Of a DNA stretch of 64,000 nucleotides, positions 652-41,158 are shown in pieces; position 1 is the stretch's first letter, and every line of letters starts with the position of its first letter. The DNA lies in IMG/VR virus record IMGVR_UViG_3300044591_000896, positions 51,480 to 115,479 of that record; one strand, 5' to 3'. The notes below the pieces were generated by a model. It saw only the letters and a list, made by a program, of their open reading frames with translations. It did not search any database and was not told the origin of the DNA. This stretch comes from a virus. The position numbers and the translations under genes were made by a program.

Positions 652-686
652 GTTTCTCCTTATATATAAGTGATACAAACGTATCG

Positions 687-758
687 CACCCCTGGCTGGA
701 ATCGAACCAGCGACCAACAGATTAGAAGTCTGTTGCTCTTCCGCTGAGCTACAGAGGT
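687..758 (-). tRNA. tRNA-Arg(UCU)
   Basis: Cloverleaf: acceptor ACCTCTG/CAGGGGT, D arm GCTC/GAGC, anticodon arm ACAGA-CTTCTAA-TCTGT, T arm GCTGG-TTCGATT-CCAGC; CCA not encoded. Confidence 0.93.
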
Positions 759-761
759 ATT

Positions 762-1067
762 TTATTGATCTTCTTCGTCTTGATTCATTTCTACTAATCC
801 CAGGGTCTTTGCCATCTCTTCTCCTTCTGGACTTAGCGAAAAAGTTGCTTCTAAATTTTCATCATATGAAACATTTAAAAATCCACTTTCAAATAACTTT
901 AGCATTGCATCATCAATATACTCTGTGTGCGCTTTCCATAACTCAGGCGCAATATCTTTGGCCTTTTCTGTTATCAGAAAAATAAACTCTCCGTCTTCGT
1001 CAATGCCTTCAACTGAAACAGCACCGATTTCTATGTAGTACTCTATATCTTTCACATATTCTCCCAT
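762..1067 (-). CDS. Hypothetical acidic protein
   Basis: ORF filling the gap between two tRNAs; ATG at 1067 begins 2 nt downstream of the tRNA discriminator base. Confidence 0.7.
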   Translation of the reverse strand: MGEYVKDIEYYIEIGAVSVEGIDEDGEFIFLITEKAKDIAPELWKAHTEYIDDAMLKLFESGFLNVSYDENLEATFSLSPEGEEMAKTLGLVEMNQDEEDQ

Positions 1068-1068
1068 G

Positions 1069-1142
1069 TGCAACAGGTAGGACTCGAACCTACGATTACC
1101 GAATTATGAGTTCGGGGCTTTAACCAACTAAGCTACTGTTGC
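1069..1142 (-). tRNA. tRNA with CAU anticodon (elongator Met or lysidine-modified Ile2)
   Basis: Acceptor GCAACAG/CTGTTGC, anticodon arm CCGAA-CTCATAA-TTCGG, T arm GTAGG-TTCGAGT-CCTAC; paired 1:72 and no triple G-C anticodon stem, so not an initiator. Confidence 0.9.
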
Positions 1143-1151
1143 CTAGTTGCA

Positions 1152-1157
1152 ATTATA
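1152..1157 (-). promoter_or_regulatory. -10 box (TATAAT) in front of the CAU tRNA
   Basis: Perfect TATAAT 9 nt upstream of the tRNA 5' end. Confidence 0.5.
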
Positions 1158-1401
1158 GTATAACCTTATCGTTATTGTCAATGGTTTTTTCAACTATCTG
1201 CTGCACGTATTCTGAAAAATGTTTTCTTATTTTTCCAGGTGGCCTTGATCCAATAGAGTTCCAAACTCTAGTGTATTCCATTATATTGGCAAATGTAGTT
1301 GGGCATACAACTATGCCATTAAACTCTCTCAATACAGTTGGAAGTGGAACATGCTTGCCACAGCACTTACACTCTTTAGCTTTATCTTGATATTCACTCA
1401 T
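1153..1401 (-). CDS. Hypothetical small Cys-containing protein
   Basis: CKCC...C motif; ATGA overlap with the terminase stop. Confidence 0.7.
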   Translation of the reverse strand: MSEYQDKAKECKCCGKHVPLPTVLREFNGIVVCPTTFANIMEYTRVWNSIGSRPPGKIRKHFSEYVQQIVEKTIDNNDKVIL

Positions 1402-3197
1402 ATTATTTGCATCCTGTCCATTGCTTCTCTTAAATCTTGTGGCATTCTTGGTGCCCTAATCATATTAGTTGATGTTACATCTGGGTTATCTCTACTAAAA
1501 TCATCATGTATTGACATTGACTCATATGTATGAATGTTTATTTCATTATTCATGTCTGGCCTTGTTCTACTAATTGAATTAAATATAGATCCACAGACTG
1601 CATCCGCCAAGTCTTTAGAACCTTTTCGTGGGTGATCAACCTTATCACGCATAATTTTTAACTGCAACAATTCATCAATTAGAAGTGGTATATATGGACC
1701 ATTGAGTCTTTCTTCTAATACAACCATAGCCATATCGTCATAATGCTTTTTAGCCACCGACAAAATTTCAGTATTAATTCCATATTGCTTTAGCTGCTGC
1801 ATCATATCATGCGAGTTCCATCGGTCAAATGTACACACTCCTATATTAAACCCACGTGTTTTAAGTGCAAGTATATAGTCTTTAACCTCAGTAAAATCAA
1901 CAGACTTATCAGGCGTAGGTGTCCAGTATCTAACTGCATCTACACTAACAATTGGTGCTGGCTGAGAGTACTCGTTTGTAACTCTAACATTAACCCATCT
2001 TTCAACATGTGCTAGCGAGACTGCACAGTGGTCGTGCTTTTGTGCAAGGTCAACGTGTATAAAGTATCTTGTATCTTCTTTTGGTTTAAACCATTCTTCT
2101 AATCTACCAAAGCTATCTACAGAAAGAGCAGTATTATTAAATGCCTTCTCTACCTTTTCACGTGACTTAAAGAAAGCATCTACCATCTCTGGTGGCATGC
2201 AAGCAAATCTACCAAGAGCGTCTAACGAATTCTTGTAGAAGTCTACCTTAAAATCTTCAATCTTTTTAGTTGGGTTGACTTCCCATGTTGGCCTCTTTAA
2301 AGCATATGTCTTAGGATACAGATAAGATATGATGTGGTCTTCTTCCCAATCAATAGTTATCTCATTACCATCAGTTCCGTCTGGGAGATCATCGTCCATC
2401 TTAAGAGTCTTTGTTCTAATAATAGTTTCTTTTTCTCCAATAACAGACTCATAGAATTTTTGTATTGGATCATTTTTGAAACGGGGGAATGAAAGTAAAA
2501 TTACTTTTCCATAGTCTGGGAAACGGGACATCACAGATGCACGGTACATGTCATATATAGCATCAGCTGTCTTAGCCTGGTCATGTCCTGTTGTATTTTC
2601 CATGGCAAAACCAGAGATCTCATCAAGGATAACAGTTATAACGTTGTATCCTTCCCATGCTTCTCTTTGAGAGTGGCCTGAGTATACATTTACATTCTTA
2701 TCAAATTTAATTTCAGATGCTTTAGGCTCATATTTTCCAGCAAACCATGGGGACAATTCAATTCTTGTCTTAAATCCTTTAAAGAAAACATTGTTTGCCT
2801 GCTGTGCGTTAATAGCAATATTTAGGATATCAATTGTGTCACCTGGTGGCTTACCATAGTATGTTGCTGGATCTTTTAGACATAGCAATAAATAAACTTG
2901 ATAGGCAACTGAAATCGTAGCAGTGTAGTCTTTACCAGAACCTTTACCTAGCTGTGCAATTACTTCATTGCATGTCTGCTTAAATCTTAGCTTTCCATCC
3001 TCTTCGCCAAAAAGCTTTATTAGAGTGGACTCTTTATATATCTGGGAAGACTTTTCAATAAGCGTATACTGTAGTTCAGATAATTGTGGCAGCCCTAAAT
3101 AATTTGGATCAGTAACAAATGTTTGTAGGTCTACTGGACGCTCTTCAAATTCTTCTCCGTCAAGTATGTCAATTAAATCTGAAAAATCAAACGACAT
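1398..3197 (-). CDS. terL: Terminase large subunit
   Basis: Walker A GKGSGKD, Walker B VILDE, C-terminal RNase H-like nuclease (HVDLA, FDRW, KDLADA). Confidence 0.92.
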   Translation of the reverse strand: MSFDFSDLIDILDGEEFEERPVDLQTFVTDPNYLGLPQLSELQYTLIEKSSQIYKESTLIKLFGEEDGKLRFKQTCNEVIAQLGKGSGKDYTATISVAYQVYLLLCLKDPATYYGKPPGDTIDILNIAINAQQANNVFFKGFKTRIELSPWFAGKYEPKASEIKFDKNVNVYSGHSQREAWEGYNVITVILDEISGFAMENTTGHDQAKTADAIYDMYRASVMSRFPDYGKVILLSFPRFKNDPIQKFYESVIGEKETIIRTKTLKMDDDLPDGTDGNEITIDWEEDHIISYLYPKTYALKRPTWEVNPTKKIEDFKVDFYKNSLDALGRFACMPPEMVDAFFKSREKVEKAFNNTALSVDSFGRLEEWFKPKEDTRYFIHVDLAQKHDHCAVSLAHVERWVNVRVTNEYSQPAPIVSVDAVRYWTPTPDKSVDFTEVKDYILALKTRGFNIGVCTFDRWNSHDMMQQLKQYGINTEILSVAKKHYDDMAMVVLEERLNGPYIPLLIDELLQLKIMRDKVDHPRKGSKDLADAVCGSIFNSISRTRPDMNNEINIHTYESMSIHDDFSRDNPDVTSTNMIRAPRMPQDLREAMDRMQII

Positions 3198-3723
3198 CTG
3201 CGTCCTGAATTACTATTGCCTCCACTACGCCAGTAATCTGGGATAGCCTTTTTGCAACATCCATTTTACACTTAGGACAAGATGCAGTTACTTCTTTTAA
3301 TATACCTACTAGTATTTCTTGCTTACGTTCTGTCTCTGCAATTTGTGATGCTATCTGTGTATTCTCTAGAACTCCAACAGATTGAAGCATGGCTATTCTT
3401 TTAGTCTCTATATCTGCAATTAGTTTTAGTGCTCCCGCCTTAACACTAAGCTGCCCGCTTTGATCTGCGTCTTCTACGGTCTTCCAGGCCTCTTTAATAA
3501 GCATTGCATAGTGTTGGTCAGCACCAGAGATTGCTTCTCTTGCTCTATCTCTTATATTAGAATCATTGTGTACGACTGTCTTCCACTCATCAATAAACTC
3601 TAGGACTTCTTTTCTAGAAAATCCTGTAGCTGCTGCTATCTGCGTGGCTGAATTTCCCTTGAGTAATTCCTCAACGACTTTATTCATTCGGTCAAAATGT
3701 ACTGCTGGCTCTATATCGCTCAT
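3187..3723 (-). CDS. HTH protein, probable terminase small subunit
   Basis: N-terminal HTH (SATQIAAATGFSRKEV), helical body, directly upstream of terL. Confidence 0.6.
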   Translation of the reverse strand: MSDIEPAVHFDRMNKVVEELLKGNSATQIAAATGFSRKEVLEFIDEWKTVVHNDSNIRDRAREAISGADQHYAMLIKEAWKTVEDADQSGQLSVKAGALKLIADIETKRIAMLQSVGVLENTQIASQIAETERKQEILVGILKEVTASCPKCKMDVAKRLSQITGVVEAIVIQDADVV

Positions 3724-3729
3724 GATACT

Positions 3730-3735
3730 ATTATA
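3730..3735 (-). promoter_or_regulatory. -10 box of a probable leaderless promoter
   Basis: TATAAT 6 nt before ATG 3723, no room for a Shine-Dalgarno. Confidence 0.6.
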
Positions 3736-3738
3736 CTT

Positions 3739-4083
3739 CTAGTCGACTGAAATGGCAACCTGAGACATGGCTATTCTTAATAACACCAGGTATCCAATTA
3801 AATCATCAACATCATTATCTCCAGCATACCCCTGTGAGTTCTTAATCCTATTTAATTTATCATCAATGCGAACCTTTAATTGCTCTACTGAATCTGACTG
3901 TGCAAATAATCTCATTGGATTTAAAGCAGAATCTCCGTATGATACATTTTTTTTAATTAACATCTCAGCAATATCAAGACATTCATTCATAATTTTATTT
4001 CCTGATGGTGCATCTGTAGCTAACAACTGCAGGTCTGTAACCCACATTTGAAAACCCTTTTCTCTTTCTGGATAACCCGCCAT
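3739..4083 (-). CDS. DUF1599 / nucleotide-modification-associated domain protein
   Basis: KKNVSYGDS...RIDDKLNRI...DDLIGYLVL pattern typical of this all-alpha family. Confidence 0.7.
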   Translation of the reverse strand: MAGYPEREKGFQMWVTDLQLLATDAPSGNKIMNECLDIAEMLIKKNVSYGDSALNPMRLFAQSDSVEQLKVRIDDKLNRIKNSQGYAGDNDVDDLIGYLVLLRIAMSQVAISVD

Positions 4084-27139: not shown

Positions 27140-29403
27140 ATCCACTCCACCACTCTTTCTGTCCATCCGCCAGATTCTATTACATTCATTGGTGTTGCTT
27201 TATGATCCGCTGCCAATGTGCCAAGTGCTCCACGTGTTTTAACACGATATCTACCTGTTGGCTTAAAATATGCTGTTCCTAAAATATTATTGATATCAAC
27301 AAATCCTGGCTTTGATAATGAGACATACTTATTAACATCATTTTGTGATGCTATCCAAACAATATTTTCATCATCATTAAAATCAATAAATTGATATTCT
27401 AATGCATCAAATTCAATTACCTCTGAGTCAATAAGAAAATATCCGCTGAATGCGAATCCGCTTTGATATTGGCTATAAGAATCTCCAACAGTATTATTAT
27501 TTATTACTAATACTGTATTATCTGCTGGTGTGTCCTTTGATATGTCTAGCTTTAGTCCGCCTGCGCTCAAAAAAGTCGTTGGTGCTTGTGCAAGCTTTGT
27601 AGCATCTCCAGTATACTGGGTTGGCACAATTGAATTCCATATAATCTTTACGTTATTTCCAGAAGCAACTTCTTCTTGGCTTAAAGAAATAATGTTGGGA
27701 AGAACTGACCCTTCTGGCTTTTCATAAAAATTCCAAACTGGTACCGTTTGTGAATATATCTTATCTCTTGTATAAAATTGCAAAACATTATTTTGATCAA
27801 AGAAGGCATTCATCTGTATGTCTCTACACAAATCTTGAAGGTGCTCCCATACCGTTTTTGAATCTGTTGTCCACCAGTATCCTATTGTTGGTATTGAAGT
27901 GTCTTTAATTACTACGGCGCCTTTTGCAGATGTTTCTGTTACCATATTTATATTATAGTTTGTAAATCCAACTGAGTCTAGCAGTCTTCTAATTATTGCA
28001 GTTGCTGAGTATGTCTCGCACAGCATGTCTGGCGCTATTGATTCCATTAAATACTTTGCGCCATCTAGGGCAACTATATCTGTGTCGCCAAAGTTATTAA
28101 TTGTCCAGCTATCCATGTAGTAAGATCCCTGTGGAATCTTATACTCTGTTGAGCCATCATATATCTTAAAGTGTGGTCTTAGTTCTGCATTTTTAAATGT
28201 GTATAAGAAATCAAAGTCAGATGGGCCATTGGCAATAGTTGTCCATGGCTTTTCTCTATTGTATGATCTAATCATAACCTGGTTCTGATTGTAGTTTGAT
28301 AAAGACAAAGAAAGAACATTTGCTGAAAGCTTTCCTACTGGAAGGATGTCGCTTGAAGATGAATTTGAAGACTCTTGTGATAATGAAAATCCTGCAACTA
28401 GTGGGCTTATTTCCTTTACCCATCTTGCAGAAATCTCTATTAATCCCATGACGCTTGTTCCGCCAGGATTTTTTGCAGTTAATGCAATTGATTTTATATA
28501 CTTTGGGGCCCTGTAAATATTGTCAGTAAAATGAATCCAGTTTTCATCTATCTCAGTAGGATATAAAGATACTTCTCCTGATGGAAAATCTGTGCTAAAG
28601 TTAGGCATTATTCCTGACTTTACTGCTCCATCTTTATAGGTTATGCTAACTGTAACTTCGGATGGTAGTGCATGATTCTTATCAAATCTAATTAATATCT
28701 TATTTGCAATCGCTGCTTTTGTTTCTGGTATAGTGGCTACTCCAGCAGATGTTAGATAGCCAATCTTACCTATGTTCTTTTCTATAATAAATGAAGTACT
28801 TGATGGTACCTCTATAATTTTGCCGTTTGTATTATATGCTGTGTCTGACATTCCAGTTATTGTTATTGTATTGCCAGTTACAAATCCATGTGGCACTGTG
28901 GTTGTATATTTAACCTTGAACCTTGTACCAGTATTTGATGCCTCCGCTTTTATAATAGAAACAGTTGTTTGTGAATATTTAATTGTTATTGTTGAGTCTT
29001 TGCCTTCTGGCGATAGCCAGTATTTATAAAATGTTGATGGACCTGGATAATAAACTCTTGGTGTAGAAAGATTATAGTATGTAGCTTTTGGATCTTTATA
29101 TATAAAATTAGTTCCATCTGATGGTACTACAAAATACTTGACTCCAGAATTTAGTGGTCTAAATGGCTTTATAATAGAATCAACTGGAAATAGCTTTTTA
29201 AATGGATTAGCTGTTCCCTGTTTAAAATTAGTTATTCCAGCGGTATATTCTGCATCTGTGTTTGATGAATACACTGATATATTGTCTATCATTGTATTCA
29301 TATTGTATTCTATTTCACAGCCAACTGATATATTGATTGATGATCTGTTTTTTAATATTCCTGTGACGGCATCTGTTTGTGCTGGAGTTGCAAGAGAAAT
29401 CAT
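27136..29403 (-). CDS. Minor tail (hub-like) protein
   Basis: Second gene after the tape measure; TVWEHLQDLC...FFDQNNVLQF pattern. Confidence 0.65.
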   Translation of the reverse strand: MISLATPAQTDAVTGILKNRSSINISVGCEIEYNMNTMIDNISVYSSNTDAEYTAGITNFKQGTANPFKKLFPVDSIIKPFRPLNSGVKYFVVPSDGTNFIYKDPKATYYNLSTPRVYYPGPSTFYKYWLSPEGKDSTITIKYSQTTVSIIKAEASNTGTRFKVKYTTTVPHGFVTGNTITITGMSDTAYNTNGKIIEVPSSTSFIIEKNIGKIGYLTSAGVATIPETKAAIANKILIRFDKNHALPSEVTVSITYKDGAVKSGIMPNFSTDFPSGEVSLYPTEIDENWIHFTDNIYRAPKYIKSIALTAKNPGGTSVMGLIEISARWVKEISPLVAGFSLSQESSNSSSSDILPVGKLSANVLSLSLSNYNQNQVMIRSYNREKPWTTIANGPSDFDFLYTFKNAELRPHFKIYDGSTEYKIPQGSYYMDSWTINNFGDTDIVALDGAKYLMESIAPDMLCETYSATAIIRRLLDSVGFTNYNINMVTETSAKGAVVIKDTSIPTIGYWWTTDSKTVWEHLQDLCRDIQMNAFFDQNNVLQFYTRDKIYSQTVPVWNFYEKPEGSVLPNIISLSQEEVASGNNVKIIWNSIVPTQYTGDATKLAQAPTTFLSAGGLKLDISKDTPADNTVLVINNNTVGDSYSQYQSGFAFSGYFLIDSEVIEFDALEYQFIDFNDDENIVWIASQNDVNKYVSLSKPGFVDINNILGTAYFKPTGRYRVKTRGALGTLAADHKATPMNVIESGGWTERVVEWI

Positions 29404-29879
29404 TATACTTCCTCCAGCGTCATTGATATTGTCCAGAAAGAATGTAATCCACGCTTTTGTAAGACTGCGGAAAATTCTGTAAACGATACTGTATATACTT
29501 CTCCTGTATTGACATTGTCTTCTGCGGCACCAGACTTTGCAAAATTTAATAGTATTCTAAATGTGCCCTTGCCCTCTTCGCTTGCATAAAATCTTCTTAG
29601 ATCTTCTGCCCCAAGGTTTCCGTCTGCCGTATGTGTTCTTGTAGTTGGTAGCATATTCCAAGACATGCTAAATGTTTTTTTATCAGCAATAAAAAATTTT
29701 CTGAGGGTTCCGTTAGCCATTCTTTGAACTTGCTGGATTCTATTTGAGCCTACAGTTATTTCTGATCTATTGTGGTCAGATATTTTTAGCCAAGTTAAAG
29801 TGGTGCCTGGTACAGTGGCAAGAACATCCTTGCCCTCTATTTGTAGCCCTACGCCTTTAGGTAATTTTGTATAACCCAT
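29403..29879 (-). CDS. Distal-tail-like protein
   Basis: Immediately after the TMP; RMANGTLR...WNMLP...TLEEV. Confidence 0.65.
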   Translation of the reverse strand: MGYTKLPKGVGLQIEGKDVLATVPGTTLTWLKISDHNRSEITVGSNRIQQVQRMANGTLRKFFIADKKTFSMSWNMLPTTRTHTADGNLGAEDLRRFYASEEGKGTFRILLNFAKSGAAEDNVNTGEVYTVSFTEFSAVLQKRGLHSFWTISMTLEEV

Positions 29880-32800
29880 TATGCTCTAACCTCCAATCCA
29901 CTTCCTAGTGATCTACTTTCTCCCATAGATTTAACTGATATCTTGCTCATTGTCTTCATAGACTCAACTGTTTTTCTTGTAACCATATCAGATAGTGCAT
30001 TTATGTCACCATCAAATCCATTAATATTATTTGTAATGTTATATACGCCTCCACCCATTGTAGCATTATTAGCATTAGGATTAAAGGGGTTCATGTTAGC
30101 AGGAACTACTGCTTCATTCTTATGAAGCATCGCAAGCATATCTGCTGGGACATTATTAATTCCAGTTTCAAATTTAGGAATGTTGAATTTTCCTCCAGCC
30201 ATTCCTCCTTCTGCAAAATGCCCAGCCTTTAAGAATGGCAAAACCTTACCCAATCTTTCTTTTTGATCAGCAGCTCTCGTAACAATTTCTGTTAGTGTTT
30301 TTTCTAATTCTGATGATATTTTAGTAAATCCCACTTTGCTTAAGTTCAGGGAATCAAAAAATCCTAGATCTCTTCCATCTAATATCTTTTTAAATCCAGA
30401 TACTACTTTTTGAGGAGCTAAAGATGCTACAACTGGGTGGGACACAGAATTTGTATTTCTTCCACCTTCATGAACTATTGTGTCAATAAGGTATTTAAAT
30501 CCTTTTGGACCTAGCTTGGTAAAAGCTAGCCTTAAATTCTCTCCTTGCAAGAAGCTATCTCTTGCTCTACCAAGTGAGCTAAATGCTTGACCAGGTATTC
30601 TTTCTCCTGCCAACATCAGTCTTGCAGTTTCCATTCCGTGAGTTTTAGCTAAAAACGATTCTAGAGCTGCATAGGCTCTTTTGCTTTGAGACCAAATTGA
30701 TTTCTGTCCGCCACGTAAATCTAAAGTTTTTCTTCCAGTAAGTTTTTTGAAAAACATTTCATATATGTTTCCAGCTTCTTCGCTAAACACATTAACCGTA
30801 TTTTTAGTTTTTGAATATGATGAAGACATTCCTTTTGAAGCTGTGGTAAACAAATCAAAGTCAAAAAGGTTTCCGAACATGCTGTGCTTAGCAGCAAACA
30901 TGTCATCTACTGCATTTCCTAAAACACCAGGTACTGATCTATCTAAAAGTGTTTCTGGAAGTATGCCTCCATGATAAAAAGGACGCATTGATAGCTCTTT
31001 AAGTGTTTCAAACATTTCTGGTCCTGAGCTTGGATCAACTGCTGAAGGTGACCAGCTTCCTTCTCTTCCACCCATTTCTAATATTTTTCTAGCTTTCATT
31101 GTTCCATATGGGGTGTATCTGTATAAGAAATTTGATATAGCTTGCTTTGGATTAAATGAAGATTTTGCTGGCAATATAAATTCTTTAAAGAATTTAAATG
31201 AATTCTTTTTAGCATCAATGCCAGAAGTTATTTTTGACTTTACCTTGCTTCCAATTTTAGCAATAGGATTTAAAGTTGTCGCTTTAGTTAAATTAGATAG
31301 TAGCCCAAAAAGTTCACCAAAGGCTTCCTGAGGATTTGTCTTACCAACATTGCTTAGGTCTGCCCAATCATCCCAAGCCTTTGCTCCTCCAGGAGCACCA
31401 GTACGAGATGGTAGAATACGAGGACGATTTGTAATATCGTCAAAAAAGCTTTTGCCTGTTCTTCTAACATAATCGGCTGTATTAGTAAATACAGATGGAA
31501 CCCCCTTTGGACTATAAGGTCTAAAGCCAGCAATTTTAGGTATTTTATACAACGCCTCTTTGCCTACTTTTGTTGCGCCAACTGTTTTCCATAACACAGA
31601 CCTTAGAGTATTTAATATGCCTTTAGGCGTTTGTTGTACGGCTCTTAGTGCTGCTGATCCCAACATCTTTGCAGATGGTGCAGCAACATCTAGTGGGTAC
31701 TTTGATATAGATTTTGCTGCTTTGGTTTTGCCTACAAGGAAGTTGAGGGGGAATAACGCAGCATTTGCATAGTCACCCTTATTTGGTTTTCCAAAGAATT
31801 CGCTTTCTTTTCCTCCTCGAAAAATTTTATTTCCTGTTTGCATTAATCCTTTTATACCTAATGCGTCAAGCCAAGGTACTGAGAATCCCCTAAACAGTCC
31901 ATCTCCAACTGCTGGTCCATAAGAATAAGGAGAGTTGTTGGATGAACTTTTATTTTTAGATTGGCTTTCAGTATAAACTCCCTTATCAATATATCTAGCA
32001 TTAAGCTGATCAAGAGTCATTCCCTTTGTATCTATTACACTGATACCAAATCCACCACTCAACTTATCATAAACATAATGTTTTTTTCCATCAAGCTTTG
32101 TCCATTTAGGCGCTGACATCACATTTGTTGAGTCGTGCTTATGACCTACTGGACCACCGTCATGGAACCCTTTTATCCTGCCTAGTGGATGATTTTTGAC
32201 TCCAGTATAGAATGGAGCAAATTGTCCAGCAGTTTCATTGCCAATCATGTACTTGGTTCCAATGTATCCGTCTTTCATAGCTGCTTGGACTGCTGGATGA
32301 TTAAATTTTACTCCATACATACCTTCTGTAAGACCATACTTTTTTGCCATATCTGTAGAGCTAGCAAACCCTTTACTTTTTAATATTGTCATTATGGCTT
32401 TAACATCTAGCTTTGTCTTATATGAGTTACTACCGTATCTTGGATTTCCAGCTTGATACTTAGGGCTTGATGAAAAGTGTGTAAAGTTTCCTAAAGTTTG
32501 TTCTTTTTGAGCCTGGTATTCGAGTGGATGTAAAAGCTCATCAGCTAGGTTTGGATTTGGGGAATTATGGACTCCCTGCTTCATAAGCTTAAGTGCTTCT
32601 AGTTTATTTCTAGTAGATCTGATGGCTCTGGTTGGCCTAATAAATGGAATTATAGATGCGTAGTCCATAGCTCCAGCGTTGCCTTGTGCAATTCTTCCAG
32701 CTGTGTTGTACATTGAAATTTCTTTTAATGCCTCTAAAGCAGTAGCGTTCTTTTCTGACTGGCTTAAAGATGTCTTGTATTCTGGTGCACGGTAATCAAG

Positions 32801-35800
32801 TTTTTTTGCTCCATGGTTTTGCATTCCAGTAACATAAGCACTTCCTGCATTACTAAACCAATTTAATGGATTAAATCTTGACAGCCAGCCACCTTCTGCA
32901 AACCCAGGAATCATTCCGCCTTTATTTAAATATCCTGAGTTTATTGGTGAGGGTGACCCTAATCCAACTGGGCCACCACCTGCAAGCTTTTGAGCATTTA
33001 GTCCATCAAAGAAACTAACTCCATATTGCTTTACAGCTTTTTCTTTAATTACATACTCACCATTTGAAAGCCAAGCTGGAATAGAATCAGATGTTCCAGT
33101 TCCTGGACCCTTTACATTTCCACCCCACTCAAAATTCTTAACTGGTCCTCCTGTAGCATAGGATCTAAATCCAACATTAGGAATATTGTATCCCCAATAT
33201 CCAACTACTTTTCCTCCCTTTGTTACAGAACCATTGTGCTCATATTTTAATCCGTCTTGAACAAGAGGAGTTTTTACTCCTTTATTGTAAAGTGCTAGAT
33301 TTATGTCTTGCACTCCGTTAAGCGCACCACGATTTACTTTGCTATTTGGATATATATAAGCTTCTCCAGACATAGGCTTTTCTGGGTTCTCAAAGTACTT
33401 TGCTCTTCCTTTAGCTCCTTTGCCAACAGATTTTCCATCTGCTGTAAAGTATTCCATTTTATTATAATCATTAGGATTTTCTGGGTCTTTTTTAATTTCT
33501 CCACGAAGCTTGCTTAAAGGTATAGTTCTTGTTCCATTAACCTCATCTAATCCAGTTAATGTTTTAACATACAAACCAAAGTCTTCAACGTGAGTGCCAA
33601 ATTTTTCAAAATAAGTTTTAGCATATTCTACTGTTGAATTTGCTGGGCCACCAGGATCATTTGTTAATGATTTAAGATACGCTACCCAGTCTTGTTTACC
33701 AGGCTGTACTATAGGCTGGCCTCCTGGCGTTACTATTGTTGATCCCTTTGATGTTGGAACTCCGCTTGTTACGGTTTTAGCAGCTTTTGCACCATCTGAT
33801 CCAAGCGCTGCTAAGGCAGCTACATCTGAGCGAAGTGCCTCAGCAAGTAAAGCAATTGTTCCTTCGTCTGTTGTAATTGCTGCTTTAGATAAAGTTGTTG
33901 CAATGCTCTGCTGCAATGCTTGTACTGACGCATATTCTTTTTGCTTAGCGTTAGCTATTTCCTGTAACTTGTTTGCTCGCTCTTGAAGCTTAATAAGTCT
34001 CTCTTGAACACCAGCTTTTTGAGCCTCAAGTTTTTTAACTTCTGCATCTCTCTTATCTTGAATTGCATTTATTGATAGTGTTTTTTGTCTTTCGTTTGTT
34101 AAGCTTTGTATATTAAGCTGGGATTGTGCTGCACGAGACATATCGCCAGACAATAATGCTTGCTGGTAGTTTAGTTGCTCTTTTTGAACCTCTGTTAAAT
34201 AGTCTTGCTTTTCTGCTTGATCTTCAATGGCACGTATTCTTGCATCTGCTTCTTCATTGATTTTTTCTATCTTTTTATCAAGAGCTTTTATTTCTGCATC
34301 TGCATTCTTTTGAGCATTCTTTGTTGCATCATCTGATGCCTTTTTTGCATCATCGTATGCTTTCTTTGCAGCTGCTCCGTATTCTGCAATTGCATCAATT
34401 GGGTTATTCATTAAATTAGCATTTGTTGTCATCTCTGTTGCTGCTTGAGATATAGCGTTTACAACCTGTAGTAGTCCTTGAGCCTCTTCTCCACTTATAT
34501 CAGAAAGGTCTGCTGTGACTCCATTTGTATATAACTGTATTTTTGCCCAAGCATCAACCATGCTATCAGTTGAATTTAATATGTCTTTATATAGTGGGTT
34601 TTCTTGTATAAGTGTATTTAATATATTGTCGCCAATATCTTGTTGATTAGATTTGTTGGCATTCATGTGGGCTATAGTGTCATTTAAAGCTTCTACTTGT
34701 GACTTTGCTTTTCCGCTAGCATCTTTTACCCCTACTAAGCTTTGGTAATAAAGCTGTATTGCATCTAATCCACCGCTAAATGATGCTGCAATTTCTTTTT
34801 TATCAACATCGGAAGCATTCATTGACTTTACAAAAGTATCTATTGCTACCTTTGCTGCTGAGGCTCTATCGACTATCTTTAAAAATTCTGTTGATGATAC
34901 AGCCTCTGTAGCCTGTGAAGCTTTATTTGAAATAGATATAATGCTGTAAATTTCTCTTGCTGCATCCTGTGCTGATTTTCCTGCTGCAACTAGCTGAACC
35001 TTTAGTGCTGTTGCTGCTTTTGTAACATCATTTTTATCAAGGTCATTAAACATAGACACAATATCGCCTTGTGTCTCTTTGGCTTTCTTTTGTAATGCAT
35101 TAAGTTCTTTTACGGACATATTAATTCCGCCGCCAATTGCAGTAGATCCCGCTGCCTTTACCTTAGTTAATTGACTTTGTGCTTGTGCTGCATCTGTTGC
35201 CTTTTTTATTTTATCAGTTAAACTTACGTATGCAATTCCAAGTTGTTTTGCTTGCTTTTCATTTACATCAAAAGCTTCTTGAGAGGCAAGTCTTGCCTTT
35301 CTTGCATTCTCCCACGCTCCATAAGATACTGTTGCAAGTGTTGTAAGTGCTACTACTGCTACCTTACCCCAACCAGGAATTGCCATTCCAACTAATCTTA
35401 GTTTGGCTAAGCTTTGTGCAAATTTACTAACGCTCTTAGTTGCTACTGCGGTTTCTGCGGCATCGTCTACAACACTACCTGCTGCTTTAGCAGCCTTTGC
35501 AGCCTTTGCAGTTTTTACACCCTTGTAAATTGATCCAGCAGTCATTACTGCAAATATTCCATTTAGAATAAGGTTTGATTTTTCGCTGGCGATTCCCAAC
35601 TTCTCTAAAGCTTTTGGCAATAACATGAATGCAGCTAATGGCAAAGCTTGCTGTGCTACAATGCTTGCAACTGGACCTAGTGCTCCATAATTATACTTTC
35701 CAGTTCTAATCATTCCGCCTAATGCATGGTTAGGAACAATACCTCCACTGTTCATAGGAACAAATAGCTCTGGCCCCTTTTCTCCAACTATGTAAGGTGT

Positions 35801-38800
35801 GCCACCAGATACAGGTCCGCCCTTTTCTCTGCCCTCTAAGCCAAATATTAATTTCTTTAGCTCTTCTGTTAATGGAGTATCTTTTCTAGATTCCCAATTT
35901 GTGTATCTTCTCTTAAGAATATCTCTATCTATTGCAGATAATACTCTTCTTCCTTCTGGTGCGGAAATTGTAGAAGACGCAGCTGATCTAATGACTGAGT
36001 CCATAATGTCTGGCTCTAGTGCTTTTAATAATTGTCCTTGTGCATTTTTAGCATAGCCATATGGCATTTCTTTTGCAAGTGCTTCTGCAAACTTGTCATA
36101 AAGAATTCTTTGTGTTCTCTTTGTTAATCCGCTAGAAGCAAATAGCTTTTCTGCCATTCCTATTTCTAGTGATGTTACTCCCCATCCGCCAGTTGTATTC
36201 TTGCCAAACCCTGCACCAATTCTACGCATAGCAAGAGATTTAATAACATTGATTAATCCACCGCCATTAAATCCATTAGCATCAGATTTAAATGCCATAT
36301 CACTTAGGCTTACAGCGTGGCCTTTTTGTCTTGCTCTTAATGCTGCAGCTTCTTCTAATTTAGCAAGCGCTGCTGGTGTTAATGATTTTGGAGCTGTTGG
36401 TTTGACTGCTGAATGTATGCCATGAAACTCTTTCCAGTTTACATGCCTTGCATCTTCAAGTCTTTTTATCATTGCAGCATAAACTTCTTCTTCTCTTGGA
36501 GTTAGACCTTTAAAGCCAGCAATTGTTTCTTTTAGTCTAGGAAGGACTTCATCAATTTCATTAAGCATCGATTGCTGATATTGCTGAGGGGTCATTCCTC
36601 TTGGAATGTCTACTGTTGATTCTGCAAAAAATCTCTTTGCTCCGCCCTTTACGCCAAGTAAATTAATTCTTGCTTGTTCTGCAACTGATGGCATATCGTC
36701 TGCATATGATCTTAAACCAGAAGCTGTTTTAAATACACCCATAGTTCCGCCGTCTGCAACAAAACTTCCTCCAATGTTGCCAGGTGATAAGTCTTTATCT
36801 CCTCTTAATGCTGATGCAAGTAACTGCTGGAAGTACTCCTGCTCTGACATTTCTTTTGGTAAGCTTGCAAATCTTGGATCATAAGGTGATTCAAGAACAA
36901 GAAGCTTTCTTTTACCTGCTGGATCTGTTGGGTCTATCATTACCCTTATTTCCTGCTGAGGAGGTGTTAATCTATGTGCGCCTTGGTGTATTGCATTATA
37001 TCTTTGCTCAGCAAGTGCAGCAGTTTCATCAAGGACTGGCTTAACAAATACTCTTGTTCCATCTGGCTTTGTGTATACTCCGCCCACTCCTTCAACTGGG
37101 AAGCTGTGTCCTTTTGTATCTTCTTCTTTCTTTCCAAAGTTAGTTGGTTCTTCTTTTGCAAAACGACTCTTGTTAACTGCTTCTGTCGTCTGCTCCATAA
37201 CCTCTCTACGTTTTCTTTGCTCTTGAACCTGCTTAATTGATTTAGGCATTCCAAGGAATAATCTTCCATAGTTAGCTTTTCTCTTTTTAATGATTCCGCC
37301 CATTGCAAAGCCATCAAGCATCATATGAGCAAATGCTCCATCTTCACCATTAATCTTTAGTTCTTTAGGATTATATGTTTCATAAGAGCCCATAAAGTTT
37401 GTACCAAACTCTTCATTTTTTGTTATTAAAGTATCAAGATCAGATGTTCTATATGGACTTATTGCTGTTGCACCCTGAAATCCAGAGGAGTGGTTTCCTG
37501 GATCTTTGAACCCTCTTCTCTGCCCAGGTACATTTAAAGAATCAATATATCTTTTTCTTAGCCCTAGCTGATCTGCTATTTTAAGGTACTCTGCGTGTTG
37601 AGCTTGTGCAAATAGTCTTTCTCCAATAAGCGAGTCTCCATGTGATGCAAGATTTGATACGATACCGTCTCTTGCCTCTAGCACAAGTCTATCAGCCAAC
37701 TCGTCATCTATTTTATTTACTTTTAAAAATCTTCTTAGTGCTGGTAGTGCCTCTGAAGGGGGAAGGAACATTATGTCATCTATTATTTCTTGTGGCTTAG
37801 CTGTCCCCGCATTTATCTTTGAATTTGTTGTTTTTCTAGTATTCAGTCCCCAGTTTCCAACAAAGAAGTATCCATTTTTATTTCCAAGAACTCCTCTTCT
37901 TGGTGCAGCAGCTCCAAATACGCCTTCAACATAATCATGAGCATCATCTGCGTCAGTTCTATGCTCTCTTCCAAGCCTTATTTGTGGCGAAAGGTTTGCT
38001 AAATCATCTGCTGACTTTGCTTTCTTTCTTTTAAACAAACTCTTTAATGCATCAAATCTTCCATAGTTGTGCTTGCCAGAAACAATTGGTCCGCCTAAGA
38101 TTCCGCCTGCATTTCTAAATTGAATTCTTTGTCCGTTATTTGCTGCCTCTAGTATAGGCAACATCTCTTGTGTTTGTTCTGGTGTAAATACTGTCTCATA
38201 TGGAGTCAGCATTGCATCAATCATTCCGCCACGGTTATATGGCTTACTCTTTTTTGCATATTCCACTAGCTGTGGATTATTTCTTGTTGCATCTTGATTT
38301 AATACAAAACCACCAACTGGTATTTTTGCCATTGTGTTGTCATAGTTTACACTCTTGTCACCAGGTACAACTGGGCCATCTTCTAATGTGTATACATATC
38401 CACCATCATTAAAGCCTCTAAGTGGACCTCTCTTTGGAAGAATAATTCTTGGCTTAGTTGTTTCTATGCTGTATCCGCCGCCAGAAGTTCTAACACCTAA
38501 TCCTTCTGCAACCTTATCGACAAGAGCTGCTGTCTCTGGCTTATGGAACATTTCTTTCATGTTGGACTTGCCAGTTACTGGATCAACCACTGGCTGGCTA
38601 GTAAATGGTACTGTAGTTAGATTTATTCCTCTTCCCATACCAGCGGCAACCTGTGCAGCTGTTTCTGCCATCATAACTTCAATGGTTGCATTTAATGAAA
38701 TAATTTTTGCTCTTGCTTGATCTACAGTGATTACACCTTGCTGTAGCTGTCTTACAATCATAGCTCCTTCATCTGCAGCCAATTGTGTGAGCTGTTGCAT

Positions 38801-41158
38801 CTGTGGAAGCATTGCTTGGTATACTGAAGATAACTCATGTGTAACTGTGCCAGTTGCTGCTACTTCGGTCTTTAATAATGAAAGCTCTGCTTGTGACTGT
38901 GTAGCAATTGCTGCTGTCATAGCATGCCATTTAGCAGCTTCTGCAGCTACGATTCCCGTAGAAACTCCACTTATAGATGTTACGCCAGGAACTCTTGGAA
39001 GATCCTGATCCATATACATCTGTGGGTTGTTGCTTACTCTAACATTTACTGGACCTGGGTTTGGAACAACGCCAAATATGGTTCCTGGCTGCTGTATAGC
39101 TGCAGGTATGGTGTGTGCAAATTGTCTGCTATAAGGAGCCCCTATAAACTTGCTATCTTTATCTGCCATTCTTTCTGCATTTGCTGCAACGCCTGTTGGA
39201 GACAATACTGTTGCTCCACCCATTGTACTTATACTTGAGCTTGTTGCAACTGCTGAATTTAATGCGCTTGCCTTCAATCTATCAAATGACGCTGCAAGAT
39301 TATTAACTGCTGTCTCTAATGCTATTGCAGCTTGTGCATCACTAAAGAATGATTTTTCTACAACCTTACCAGCTTCTGCTGCTGCCATCATTTCAGGTGT
39401 TAATAATTTAAATCCTGAGCCACCCTTAAATAATTGCTTTAGATGGAATACTCCCTTGATAATATATCCAAGGAAGTTTCCAAGCACACCAGTAAGCATG
39501 ATAAGTGGTCCTGCAAATGCTGTTAGTCCACCAAGGAATGTCAGTAATGACTTGATTGGTCCTGGTAGATTTTCTACAAACTTAATTATTCCGCTGATTG
39601 TTTTTAATACAAATGTGCTTATCTTTAAGAACTGATCACCGACGCCTGCAAGTTCTGCCTTAATTGTTTCAAGTGCTCTTTTGTATTGTCCAGATGCAGA
39701 CTCTGTCATAGCCTTTAATTCTCGGTCTGCTATACTTGCTAGCTCTTCTGTGCTTGCTTTCATCAAATCTAATACTTGTAAAGTTTGTGAGCCCTCTTTT
39801 CCAAGGTTATTAAATAAAGCTCCCATACGAGCAAACTGGAATTTTCCAAAAAGTTGCTCAATTGCCTGAGCTTTTTGTAACGGATCTAGCTTATCTAATG
39901 ATGCTTGTAGTGCTAATATTGTTGCAGTTACATCTCCAGCATTACTCTTTACAATTGATCCAAGATCAATTCCAAATCCCATAAACATTTCTTTTGCAAC
40001 TTTAGTTGGGTTAATAAGTGATGCAAGAGATGACTTAATGGCATTAGCACCTTCTGATGCATTTACTCCGCCTTCTTTCATTGCAGTTAAATAAAGAGCA
40101 AGATCTTGAACGTTTCCACCAAGAGATTCAATTACTGGTCCTGCTTTTGGAATTGCTTCAACTAAATCCGCAAGAGATGTTGAGGTCTGGTTTTCAACTG
40201 CGTTAAGGAAGTTAATTGATTGTGCTAACTCATCATTGCTTTGTTTAAATGCATTTTGAATAGCAAGAGTTGCTTTCATTGCATCTTGTCTATCTACTTC
40301 ACCAAGGATAGAAAGTCTTGTTGTTTCTTGCGTTGATACAAGCAGGTCATTTCCTTGCTTGCCAGTTGCTGCAATATCCGCTGCTAATGCGATTGTTTCT
40401 TTATATGATGCACCATAGATAGACGCTAATTCTTTTGCTGTCTCCTCGACATCTTTTCTAACTTGCTTTAGTTCTGCAGAAGATGTTTCTGCTAAACCAC
40501 CGTAAACCTTTGTAAGTCTAACTAGCTGCTGGTCTGCTTCTAGGAATGCTTTTTGTGCTGCCGCACCAAATGCCATCATTGGAACTGTTAATCCAACTGT
40601 TAACTGGCGTCCTGCCCACTGTGTATTTTTACCCCAGTTGATAAGCTGGTTGGATCCATCAAGCATCACCTTGTTAAGAATTGATGCCTCTTGTCTTAAT
40701 AAAGCAGTTCTATTTTTTAAAAGATCTAGTCCATTAGCTACGTGGACATTGTATTGCATTTGCCCCTGGGCATTTCTTCCCAGGGGTTGCAATACAGCTT
40801 GTTCCATTAATACTTGCTGCTTAGCAAGATCTTTAATTAATGTACTTGTTTTTCTTGTGTGTCCTTGCCAGACTCCAAAGTACTCGCCAAGTTTCATTCG
40901 GCCAGTATCTAGCCTCTTTCCAAACTTTTGTACATCAGATTCAAGTGTTACAAAGTGTGAAGAAAATTGTCCAGTTGCTCGCATTGTTTCGGCAAATGAA
41001 CGATTCATTCTGCCTACTTCATTAGATAGGTTTCTATCTAATCCAATGGTTGTAGCTTGAAGTTTAACTAACTCGGCGGTTACGGCTCTTAACTGCGCTG
41101 TTAAACTTGAAAAGTTTGCCGTCGCAGTTATGTTCGTATTAATATTTTGTTCAGCCAA
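29879..41158 (-). CDS. Tape measure protein (3759 aa) with inserted globular domains
   Basis: Follows the frameshifted chaperone; TP901-type TMP core, hydrophobic segments, coiled coils, GPGTGTSDSIPAWLSNGEYV and VGEKGPELFVP motifs. Confidence 0.93.
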   Translation of the reverse strand: MAEQNINTNITATANFSSLTAQLRAVTAELVKLQATTIGLDRNLSNEVGRMNRSFAETMRATGQFSSHFVTLESDVQKFGKRLDTGRMKLGEYFGVWQGHTRKTSTLIKDLAKQQVLMEQAVLQPLGRNAQGQMQYNVHVANGLDLLKNRTALLRQEASILNKVMLDGSNQLINWGKNTQWAGRQLTVGLTVPMMAFGAAAQKAFLEADQQLVRLTKVYGGLAETSSAELKQVRKDVEETAKELASIYGASYKETIALAADIAATGKQGNDLLVSTQETTRLSILGEVDRQDAMKATLAIQNAFKQSNDELAQSINFLNAVENQTSTSLADLVEAIPKAGPVIESLGGNVQDLALYLTAMKEGGVNASEGANAIKSSLASLINPTKVAKEMFMGFGIDLGSIVKSNAGDVTATILALQASLDKLDPLQKAQAIEQLFGKFQFARMGALFNNLGKEGSQTLQVLDLMKASTEELASIADRELKAMTESASGQYKRALETIKAELAGVGDQFLKISTFVLKTISGIIKFVENLPGPIKSLLTFLGGLTAFAGPLIMLTGVLGNFLGYIIKGVFHLKQLFKGGSGFKLLTPEMMAAAEAGKVVEKSFFSDAQAAIALETAVNNLAASFDRLKASALNSAVATSSSISTMGGATVLSPTGVAANAERMADKDSKFIGAPYSRQFAHTIPAAIQQPGTIFGVVPNPGPVNVRVSNNPQMYMDQDLPRVPGVTSISGVSTGIVAAEAAKWHAMTAAIATQSQAELSLLKTEVAATGTVTHELSSVYQAMLPQMQQLTQLAADEGAMIVRQLQQGVITVDQARAKIISLNATIEVMMAETAAQVAAGMGRGINLTTVPFTSQPVVDPVTGKSNMKEMFHKPETAALVDKVAEGLGVRTSGGGYSIETTKPRIILPKRGPLRGFNDGGYVYTLEDGPVVPGDKSVNYDNTMAKIPVGGFVLNQDATRNNPQLVEYAKKSKPYNRGGMIDAMLTPYETVFTPEQTQEMLPILEAANNGQRIQFRNAGGILGGPIVSGKHNYGRFDALKSLFKRKKAKSADDLANLSPQIRLGREHRTDADDAHDYVEGVFGAAAPRRGVLGNKNGYFFVGNWGLNTRKTTNSKINAGTAKPQEIIDDIMFLPPSEALPALRRFLKVNKIDDELADRLVLEARDGIVSNLASHGDSLIGERLFAQAQHAEYLKIADQLGLRKRYIDSLNVPGQRRGFKDPGNHSSGFQGATAISPYRTSDLDTLITKNEEFGTNFMGSYETYNPKELKINGEDGAFAHMMLDGFAMGGIIKKRKANYGRLFLGMPKSIKQVQEQRKRREVMEQTTEAVNKSRFAKEEPTNFGKKEEDTKGHSFPVEGVGGVYTKPDGTRVFVKPVLDETAALAEQRYNAIHQGAHRLTPPQQEIRVMIDPTDPAGKRKLLVLESPYDPRFASLPKEMSEQEYFQQLLASALRGDKDLSPGNIGGSFVADGGTMGVFKTASGLRSYADDMPSVAEQARINLLGVKGGAKRFFAESTVDIPRGMTPQQYQQSMLNEIDEVLPRLKETIAGFKGLTPREEEVYAAMIKRLEDARHVNWKEFHGIHSAVKPTAPKSLTPAALAKLEEAAALRARQKGHAVSLSDMAFKSDANGFNGGGLINVIKSLAMRRIGAGFGKNTTGGWGVTSLEIGMAEKLFASSGLTKRTQRILYDKFAEALAKEMPYGYAKNAQGQLLKALEPDIMDSVIRSAASSTISAPEGRRVLSAIDRDILKRRYTNWESRKDTPLTEELKKLIFGLEGREKGGPVSGGTPYIVGEKGPELFVPMNSGGIVPNHALGGMIRTGKYNYGALGPVASIVAQQALPLAAFMLLPKALEKLGIASEKSNLILNGIFAVMTAGSIYKGVKTAKAAKAAKAAGSVVDDAAETAVATKSVSKFAQSLAKLRLVGMAIPGWGKVAVVALTTLATVSYGAWENARKARLASQEAFDVNEKQAKQLGIAYVSLTDKIKKATDAAQAQSQLTKVKAAGSTAIGGGINMSVKELNALQKKAKETQGDIVSMFNDLDKNDVTKAATALKVQLVAAGKSAQDAAREIYSIISISNKASQATEAVSSTEFLKIVDRASAAKVAIDTFVKSMNASDVDKKEIAASFSGGLDAIQLYYQSLVGVKDASGKAKSQVEALNDTIAHMNANKSNQQDIGDNILNTLIQENPLYKDILNSTDSMVDAWAKIQLYTNGVTADLSDISGEEAQGLLQVVNAISQAATEMTTNANLMNNPIDAIAEYGAAAKKAYDDAKKASDDATKNAQKNADAEIKALDKKIEKINEEADARIRAIEDQAEKQDYLTEVQKEQLNYQQALLSGDMSRAAQSQLNIQSLTNERQKTLSINAIQDKRDAEVKKLEAQKAGVQERLIKLQERANKLQEIANAKQKEYASVQALQQSIATTLSKAAITTDEGTIALLAEALRSDVAALAALGSDGAKAAKTVTSGVPTSKGSTIVTPGGQPIVQPGKQDWVAYLKSLTNDPGGPANSTVEYAKTYFEKFGTHVEDFGLYVKTLTGLDEVNGTRTIPLSKLRGEIKKDPENPNDYNKMEYFTADGKSVGKGAKGRAKYFENPEKPMSGEAYIYPNSKVNRGALNGVQDINLALYNKGVKTPLVQDGLKYEHNGSVTKGGKVVGYWGYNIPNVGFRSYATGGPVKNFEWGGNVKGPGTGTSDSIPAWLSNGEYVIKEKAVKQYGVSFFDGLNAQKLAGGGPVGLGSPSPINSGYLNKGGMIPGFAEGGWLSRFNPLNWFSNAGSAYVTGMQNHGAKKLDYRAPEYKTSLSQSEKNATALEALKEISMYNTAGRIAQGNAGAMDYASIIPFIRPTRAIRSTRNKLEALKLMKQGVHNSPNPNLADELLHPLEYQAQKEQTLGNFTHFSSSPKYQAGNPRYGSNSYKTKLDVKAIMTILKSKGFASSTDMAKKYGLTEGMYGVKFNHPAVQAAMKDGYIGTKYMIGNETAGQFAPFYTGVKNHPLGRIKGFHDGGPVGHKHDSTNVMSAPKWTKLDGKKHYVYDKLSGGFGISVIDTKGMTLDQLNARYIDKGVYTESQSKNKSSSNNSPYSYGPAVGDGLFRGFSVPWLDALGIKGLMQTGNKIFRGGKESEFFGKPNKGDYANAALFPLNFLVGKTKAAKSISKYPLDVAAPSAKMLGSAALRAVQQTPKGILNTLRSVLWKTVGATKVGKEALYKIPKIAGFRPYSPKGVPSVFTNTADYVRRTGKSFFDDITNRPRILPSRTGAPGGAKAWDDWADLSNVGKTNPQEAFGELFGLLSNLTKATTLNPIAKIGSKVKSKITSGIDAKKNSFKFFKEFILPAKSSFNPKQAISNFLYRYTPYGTMKARKILEMGGREGSWSPSAVDPSSGPEMFETLKELSMRPFYHGGILPETLLDRSVPGVLGNAVDDMFAAKHSMFGNLFDFDLFTTASKGMSSSYSKTKNTVNVFSEEAGNIYEMFFKKLTGRKTLDLRGGQKSIWSQSKRAYAALESFLAKTHGMETARLMLAGERIPGQAFSSLGRARDSFLQGENLRLAFTKLGPKGFKYLIDTIVHEGGRNTNSVSHPVVASLAPQKVVSGFKKILDGRDLGFFDSLNLSKVGFTKISSELEKTLTEIVTRAADQKERLGKVLPFLKAGHFAEGGMAGGKFNIPKFETGINNVPADMLAMLHKNEAVVPANMNPFNPNANNATMGGGVYNITNNINGFDGDINALSDMVTRKTVESMKTMSKISVKSMGESRSLGSGLEVRA

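Follow-up and report, generated by a model that had tools for sequence, protein, structure and literature searches.

A giant phage tape measure protein with a predicted kinase-fold domain and a distal block swapped between sister phages

Tape measure proteins (TMPs) are usually seen as rulers and channel formers that carry, at most, a small wall-degrading add-on. Here we analyse a TMP gene in a stretch of 64,000 nucleotides (the window), positions 51,480 to 115,479 of the IMG/VR virus record IMGVR_UViG_3300044591_000896. The record is complete, 115,479 bp long with direct terminal repeats, and matching DNA is present in lake-water metagenomes; the phage is a complete 115-kb siphophage-type genome from lake water. 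Two features of its TMP concern us. A distal block of about 900 residues is wholly different between phages that are ~90% identical in DNA around it, and alignment indicates that a kinase-fold domain with intact active-site residues is conserved throughout a TMP family.

The gene and its tape measure core

The TMP open reading frame (ORF) occupies window positions 29879-41158 on the minus strand. It encodes 3759 residues from a TTG start in a stop-free frame, and its start position is the same in relatives. A first-pass annotation, made by a model from the sequence alone, had called the product a tape measure protein, and database searches agree. PhageMin_Tail (PF10145) matches residues 239-438 with E 8e-25 (88 bits, cut-off 33), PHROG TMP families match across residues 1-850 with E down to 5e-124, and the first 630 residues share 33-35% identity with the TMPs of 133-kb Streptomyces siphophages. 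The PHROG matches of downstream genes are to minor tail and tail protein families; on the upstream side are an Ig-domain protein and two small ORFs, which may have a chaperone role. Hydropathy peaks at residues 537-571 and 1829-1849. Core domain, gene position, hydrophobic segments and a C-terminal module of solved TMPs are thus all present, and the N-terminus is that of a genuine tape measure protein. Searched whole against Pfam, the protein gives PhageMin_Tail alone, and searches with the whole protein and with pieces at E<=10 add nothing. Megablast of the gene against cultured phages finds no match. The parts of the protein are collected in Table 1.

Table 1. Features of the tape measure gene in window coordinates
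Feature	Residues	Window position	Strand	Basis
Whole TMP gene, 3759 codons plus stop	1-3759	29879..41158	-	Open frame; start shared with relatives
TMP core	1-850	38609..41158	-	Pfam PF10145, PHROG TMP families, Streptomyces phage identity, hydropathy
PhageMin_Tail	239-438	39845-40444	-	Pfam PF10145
Hydrophobic hairpin	537-571	39446-39550	-	Kyte-Doolittle hydropathy scan
First motif cluster: FNDGG, YNRGG, RNAGG...NYG	916-1034	38057..38413	-	Sequence; 98% identity in sister phages
Variable slot 1	1035-1283	37310..38056	-	Identity drop against L002/L003; replacement in other relatives
FAMGG...NYG linker, directly before kinase FLGMP[KR][ST] start	1284-1299	37262..37309	-	Motif reading, alignment
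Predicted kinase-fold domain (HipA/CtkA/PI3-4-kinase-like)	1300-1636	36251..37261	-	AF2, Foldseek, VIA-align, invariant catalytic residues
Small conserved alpha/beta domain (predicted)	1649-1774	35837..36214	-	AF2 pLDDT 65-83; conserved in relatives
REKGG...GEKGPELFVP...HALGG...NYG module	1776-1826	35681..35833	-	PHROG matches
Second hydrophobic stretch	1827-1955	35294..35680	-	Hydropathy peak 1829-1849; further runs read by eye
Ala/Lys/Gln-rich stretch	1956-2470	33749..35293	-	Sequence; 25-40% identity to relatives' TMPs
Fast-diverging domain	2480-2665	33164..33721	-	Identity drop against L002/L003
Hook/anchor module: YATGG, FEWGG, GTGTSDSIPAWLSNGEYV, LAGGG, LNKGG, FAEGG	2667-2760	32879..33160	-	Solved-TMP matches; family HMM
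Swapped cargo block	2761-3650	30209..32878	-	No sister similarity; flanks match; contigs bridge junctions
Module A, alpha/beta domain (predicted)	2843-3004	32147..32632	-	AF2 pLDDT 70-95; Atlas lead
Module B	3005-3155	31694..32146	-	Module comparison; AF2 confidence low
Module C	3156-3650	30209..31693	-	Alignment of relatives
Conserved C-terminal end, opens at FAEGG; right border of swap	3651-3759	29882..30208	-	Identity to L002/L003

A distal block swapped between sister phages

Two IMG/VR relatives carry the same gene, L002 (TMP of 3865 residues) and L003 (TMP split); their flanking DNA is ~90% and 80-84% identical to that of the window. We compared the proteins in 60-residue blocks along the window protein, which gives approximate ranges. 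Residues 1-1020 are 85-100% identical to both sisters. Identity is 42-82% by block (~69% overall) across residues 1021-1320, which span variable slot 1, and the kinase block, residues 1321-1620, is 93-100% identical to L002 and 53-85% to L003. Further on, residues 2521-2640 show 15-38% identity by block (~50% in a wider blastp alignment), and the region of the hook module, residues 2641-2760, 53-67%. Residues 2761-3650 then have no blastp or blastn similarity to either sister although the flanks match. The C-terminal end (residues 3651-3759), common to many relatives, is 93% identical to L002 and 78% to L003. By analogy with T5, JBD30 and Douge, this end may be the baseplate plug.

In DNA the window matches L002 at 89.6% identity across 13.7 kb upstream and at 90.1% across 3.6 kb downstream. 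Between these flanks, positions 30198-32984 have nothing in common with L002; they run from LAGGG to a point shortly beyond FAEGG. Just upstream of the unshared stretch the hook module forms an island of 87% identity at 32985-33142, followed by 33143-33561, again without DNA similarity. The alignments place the left junction at LAGGG (L002) or FAEGG (L003) and the right junction at FAEGG. We conclude that residues 2761-3650 are swapped wholesale between sisters, with exact junctions. Alignment of orthologous TMPs had been proposed in the first-pass annotation as a check for cargo swaps at motif boundaries, and it finds them.

The cargo is itself composite. Searched alone against 1.84 billion representative proteins it yields only 19 matches, nearly all long TMP-like proteins, and against PHROGs it yields nothing. 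The matches divide it into modules A, B and C, which recur elsewhere among TMPs in different orders and combinations. L004 lacks A and keeps the order of modules B and C and the C-terminal end, at 68-85% identity; in L015, half of module B precedes module A; P0037-P0039 have a second A-like copy after other domains; and the C-terminal half of module B (residues 3083-3147, with FRGG) moves alone in other TMPs.

Could the giant ORF or its mosaic pattern be produced by chimeric metagenome assembly? All of the sequences do come from metagenome assemblies, and the gene of L003 is broken by a one-nucleotide frameshift. Against such an artefact stand the completeness of the record with its terminal repeats, the colinear L004 arrangement and contigs from other samples, studies and years: those of four other runs (at least two studies; 2020, 2022 and 2024) span both junctions with 0-1 differences. 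We regard the artefact explanation as close to refuted and extremely improbable.

One run also bears on how the variants occur together. Summed contig depth, a weak measure, is ~30-35x in run X5 for the flanks (29879-30114 and 33045-33182) and 9.5x for the cargo, a difference of ~3 times, and several X5 contigs diverge into unlike sequence within the hook module, at 33045-33125. The excess in the flanks and the diverging contigs fit co-occurring cassette variants, and they suggest that the X5 sample holds variants that share flanks and not cargo.

What does the cargo encode? Two blocks, corresponding to modules C and A, had been annotated as ADP-ribosyltransferase (ART)-like. Module A does fold confidently in AlphaFold2 (AF2), with predicted local distance difference test (pLDDT) values of 70-95 within an 820-residue model. 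Its link to ARTs comes from an Atlas language-model feature search, in which ART-PolyVal clusters rank first with scores of 0.87 and 0.86 (the line lies at 0.9, and scores below it count as a lead only), and from a motif pattern. Remote stand-alone relatives of module A read H-x-S / GPGTYFA / EGY[IL]G. This phage has GVHNS / FTHFSS / KDGYIG: the His is kept, His occupies the Tyr position and Asp the Glu position, so that two of the three positions of the H-Y-E triad, as assigned by motif reading, are changed. No match is found to the PF18760 hidden Markov model (HMM) over the whole genome at E<=10, to Pfam with module A and five relatives at E<=10, or to phages by tblastn with module A at E<=1. 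A profile search with the module A alignment retrieves no proteins other than stand-alone relatives that lack Pfam domains. When the cargo model is used for structure searches, Foldseek gives nothing significant in the PDB (best E 0.84) and BFVD a best E of 5e-3 with poor superposition; the VIA wide search, which really tested helices 322-465 only and barely the module A part, stays below Z 5. An ART-PolyVal-like protein at rank 17 in BFVD (E 0.11) is not counted as evidence. Module A is possibly a degenerate ART-like domain, but this is only a lead.

For module C, which holds the other ART-like block (residues 3391-3586; the stronger of the two ART calls in the first-pass annotation), that label finds no support. 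Its AF2 model has a pLDDT below 50 and is therefore uninformative, Pfam, PDB and BFVD give no match, and the best Atlas score, 0.79, is uninformative as well. PDB sequence and profile searches with modules A and C return TMP hook matches only, and hhalign finds no link between A and C (E 0.6). The module C alignment, A8, nevertheless holds 72 invariant columns among relatives 31-39% identical; polar residues (H, D, E, R, K, S) fill many of these columns, which include the motifs FYHGG, FDLF.T..K, RGG..S.WSQ.K, GER and H.GG. In P0035 an extra domain follows module C at residues ~545-790, between two FANGG motifs. The sequence pattern of this domain (MFHGS ... GMGFYATTSKAEADLYA) is PARP-like; the domain has no Pfam match, and an hhalign comparison with module A shows no link (E 0.46).

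The sister's cargo points elsewhere. That of L002 starts with an OmpA-like peptidoglycan-binding domain (L002:14309-14800; Pfam E 5e-18, PDB 7rjj E 6e-15), which suggests the cell envelope rather than the cytoplasm. Among 20 family members, Pfam finds only PhageMin_Tail (5/20) and OmpA (2/20). Does the block, then, serve entry specificity? On this account it would hold non-catalytic modules, envelope-binding or channel-forming, that fit the wall or membrane of a given host, and its variation may allow escape from superinfection exclusion aimed at TMPs. TMPs rely on membrane proteins of the host, and exclusion systems target them (HK97, TP-J34). The OmpA-like domains, the absence of recognised enzyme families and the loss from module A of a triad that its remote relatives keep are in favour, as is the variation among near-identical phages, which resembles that of receptor-binding proteins. 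However, the invariant and often polar columns of module C would suit an active site better than a binding surface, and the conserved kinase is left unexplained. We think this account doubtful.

A predicted kinase fold between glycine-edged linkers

The globular part of the TMP that is modelled best lies in its middle. With a 34-row alignment as input, AF2 gives a pLDDT of ~90 over residues 1309-1604. The top 50 Foldseek hits of this model in the PDB are all kinases or kinase-fold proteins (E ~3e-3). VIA-align Z scores are 10.3 for CtkA, 9.6 for PI4KIIalpha, 9.6 for MavQ, 9.1 for LepB and 8.9 for HipA, with ~200 aligned residues; CtkA superposes with a root-mean-square deviation of 4.7 over 203 of them. 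The predicted structure thus upholds the kinase-like domain of the first-pass annotation, and residues 1300-1636 are confidently predicted to fold as a HipA/CtkA/PI4-kinase-like domain. The order of motifs is also that of HipA, CtkA and the PI4-kinases: a Gly-rich loop, the VFVK lysine, a helix-C glutamate, a D-L-x-P-x-N catalytic loop and a metal-binding Asp. The catalytic set is invariant in relatives (K1373 in 29/29, E1384 in 30/30, and D1456, N1461 and D1469 in 33/33 each), and G1357, G1359, G1360 and D1454 are invariant or nearly so across 29-33 relatives. We judge the domain an atypical and probably active kinase.

Unlike those proteins, the domain is embedded in a TMP and has no kinase match at the level of sequence. 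Nine members searched against Pfam kinase families at E up to 10 give none, and neither phmmer nor profile searches match it to PDB kinases; at the sequence level it is a new family. More than 30 TMP relatives have the domain, at positions that vary, and this conservation makes it a fixture of the family rather than swappable cargo.

Two side observations concern these relatives. The domain always opens with F-L-G-M-P-[KR]-[ST], and the linker before it takes one of two alternative forms, N-x-G-G-x-[IV]-P-G...L-F-G-G-G or GG...K-x-[NG]-Y-G. The metagenome-assembled genomes that hold relatives of the kinase-bearing TMP (L027, L028 and P0025) are labelled Bifidobacterium, Acidimicrobiaceae and Chitinophagia; since the labels disagree and such bins are untrustworthy for phage contigs, we do not take them as indications of host.

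What separates the blocks? Fourteen short glycine motifs had been reported to punctuate the protein, three of them with NYG tails. All lie where they were reported, and they are commoner than chance allows: in 2000 shuffles, GG dipeptides number 32.5±5.1 against 49 in the TMP and [FY]xxGG 2.1±1.4 against 10, a count that no shuffle reached. The tails, of the form GG...K-x-NYG, are at residues 1018-1034, 1287-1299 and 1814-1826. Relatives break at these places. Of 259 homology alignment ends, 51% are no more than 15 residues away from a motif, while the neighbourhoods of the 14 motifs make up 10% of the protein, and motifs coincide with 10 of the 24 recurrent break-point clusters (p 6e-5). Together with the sister swap, this bears out the earlier suggestion of blocks interchangeable at motifs, except for the kinase, which is conserved and not interchangeable.

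Several motifs belong to larger modules. The hook module, which forms the left border of the swapped block, matches solved TMPs: its residues 2668-2740 align with residues 1400-1464 of Douge gp16 (8zdo_S; E 7e-27), and the module also matches residues 1019-1060 of JBD30 gp46 (8rk3_A; E 3e-8). The family HMM scores E 1e-36 over residues 2667-2760. The authors of the JBD30 structure regard this stretch as a predicted anchoring hook, which by their proposal holds the TMP in the baseplate once the protein has been cut directly behind the hook, as happens in T5. Like the window protein, the Douge and JBD30 TMPs contain the module GG...G-T/S-x-S-D-S-I-P-A-x-L-S-x-G-E-x-V; unlike it, they have 1699 and 1158 residues, carry the module once near the end, and have no kinase or cassette region described. 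Elsewhere in the window protein, residues 1770-1816 match phrog_30701 (E 2e-10) and the TMP family phrog_1538, and a stretch within the first motif cluster, residues 919-960, is weakly hook-like (HMM E 0.13). Shorter relatives (P0022, P0026 and P0032) have full copies of the hook module on either side of the kinase, ending in ...[IL]PGF-x-x-G, and in P0018, P0019 and P0034 the module directly follows the kinase. Most copies in the window protein are shrunk to the aromatic-x-x-G-G edge. In our reading, linker and anchor modules have conserved edges, and the motifs are these edges.

The frameshift of L003 lies in one of these modules. At L003:11440-11560 (window equivalent ~35815-35830) an AAAAGGG run has one G fewer, exactly at REKGG, which splits the gene into ORFs of 1786 and 2145 residues; the frame downstream is still conserved. 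An error of assembly, a slippery site or a mutation of recent date could explain the missing G.

The motifs might instead be protease sites. The TMP would then be a true polyprotein from which the kinase and ADP-ribosyltransferases are freed; these would accompany the DNA into the cytoplasm and there seize control of the host or disarm it. Cleavage of TMPs is known for T5 (after R1127) and for lambda gpH, slot 1 and the kinase block lie exactly between the three GG...NYG motifs, the catalytic residues of the kinase are invariant, module A provides its ART-PolyVal lead, and virion-delivered polyvalent proteins with ARTs and kinases have been described (PMC5512222). Yet the paper on those proteins (PMC5512222) stresses pervasive peptidase domains for processing, and Pfam at E<=1e-3 finds no peptidase families in this TMP or in 20 relatives. 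The ART triad of module A is degenerate in this phage, the PF18760 search is blank, module C is without ART support, and the OmpA-like opening of the sister cargo suggests the envelope. We hold the polyprotein to be unlikely, a little more so than the entry-specificity account. The host-takeover or anti-defence enzymes that the first-pass annotation placed between the motifs fare no better: the swapped cargo has no recognisable enzyme, and the sole well-supported enzyme fold is that of the fixed kinase.

What would leave the tail first

How do these parts fit together? The explanation that we think probable, with some reserve, is a real mosaic TMP: an ordinary core, a conserved kinase, a hydrophobic and helical stretch, and a distal region like that of T5 pb2 with an exchangeable block. 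From the N-terminus, an ordinary TMP core would be followed by an atypical kinase domain, conserved and probably active, together with its small partner, then by a second hydrophobic and helical stretch, and finally by the anchor ('hook') module, ~900 residues of exchangeable modules and the conserved C-terminal end, which analogy would place in the baseplate hub. The aromatic-x-x-G-G motifs would be the conserved edges of short linker or hook modules that bracket globular blocks. Since the edges of the modules are conserved and the blocks between them are not, recombination between related phages would swap blocks there. The TMP would exit the tail C-terminus first with the exchangeable block leading into the host envelope, so that this block would be the first protein delivered there. 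Ejection order, envelope delivery, kinase activity and any cleavage are all things that we infer. Expulsion of the block into the envelope first is the most economical mechanism, and the hypervariability of the block among near-identical phages points to a host-specific role. Its cargo could possibly be free enzymes, envelope-binding parts or both.

The closest precedent is pb2 of phage T5, which is cut after R1127, between its anchor and a C-terminal peptidase domain, and this domain is released to the periplasm (PMC10038345). As here, a hydrophobic and helical part, a short anchor and an accessory domain are followed by a C-terminal plug of the baseplate hub, and the accessory part is expelled first (PMC10038345). 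The two differ in scale and in content: T5 has one metallopeptidase region on the scale of ~90 residues, with proven cleavage, whereas here ~900 residues form three modules that are swapped between sisters. Nor is a muralytic distal domain like that of T5 detected: no lysozyme, transglycosylase or peptidase family appears in the TMP, the cargo pieces or 20 relatives.

Polyvalent proteins (Iyer et al. 2017, PMC5512222) are likewise very long virion-associated polypeptides with several unrelated domains, including a kinase and possibly an ART, and with recombinational variability. The paper makes no mention of tape measure proteins, however, and its kinases are truncated Ser/Thr/Tyr-type proteins rather than HipA/CtkA/PI4K-like as here; the peptidase domains pervasive in polyvalent proteins are not found in this TMP. 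Judged as that class is judged, the TMP has one supported effector-type domain, the kinase fold. Actinobacterial contractile injection systems (Sle1; PMC13277306, PMC11126660) offer a further parallel, with a TMP-derived scaffold and exchangeable C-terminal domains packaged in a tail-like tube. Those effectors are the cargo of intracellular contractile particles and not part of an infectious siphophage's tape measure, and we liken them by description only.

Accessory domains and cleavage of TMPs (T5), polyvalent proteins and TMP effectors of contractile systems are thus known kinds. What is new is a HipA/PI4K-like kinase conserved within a family of TMPs, together with a distal block that resembles a cassette and has defined junctions.

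Several observations count against the mosaic explanation or parts of it. It offers no account of how a folded 300-residue kinase fits into the lumen of the tail tube. In 20 relatives, Pfam recognises no cargo enzyme families. There is some circularity in the break-point test, since conserved islands by themselves bring alignments to an end, and clear borders also lie away from motifs, at residues 625-649, 1583-1594, 2368-2432, 2843-2855 and 3147-3166. No DNA direct repeats were found at the motifs within the gene. The family hook HMM scores strongly at one stretch only of the window protein; a count of four hooks is therefore not established, the remaining ones resting on pattern reading and a PHROG hit.

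A bolder version of the mosaic explanation takes the TMP as a cassette-based injection platform used by a family of freshwater siphophages, in which a fixed active kinase and polymorphic distal effectors are swapped at Gly-Gly-edged linkers and released by cleavage. We consider it improbable as a whole, though not far-fetched. If true, phages would have their own counterpart of polymorphic toxin systems, carried within the ruler of the tail. More generally, if the block is delivered into the host, such TMPs would be a hidden reservoir of phage-host interaction proteins and a natural scaffold, modular in build, with which proteins could be loaded into the tails of siphophages. They also raise a structural question: how are several hundred foldable residues stored in the tail lumen, and what becomes of the rule that relates tail length to TMP length?

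The remaining parts of the protein vary to different degrees. Slot 1 is 65-70% identical to L002 and L003, against 95-100% in its flanks, and is exchanged for unrelated sequence in P0003, P0006, P0009, P0040, L004 and L009. The first-pass annotation had seen a globular domain in it; AF2 models helices of low confidence only, and searches of Pfam and PHROGs give no match. The Ala/Lys/Gln-rich stretch at residues 1956-2470 is presumably helical. The fast-diverging domain at residues 2480-2665 matches nothing in PHROGs. Adjoining the 3' side of the gene is an ORF of 158 residues at 29403-29879, which begins on the last base of the TMP stop codon (29879); its only match is a PHROG of unknown function, and its size and position are the same in L002 and L003.

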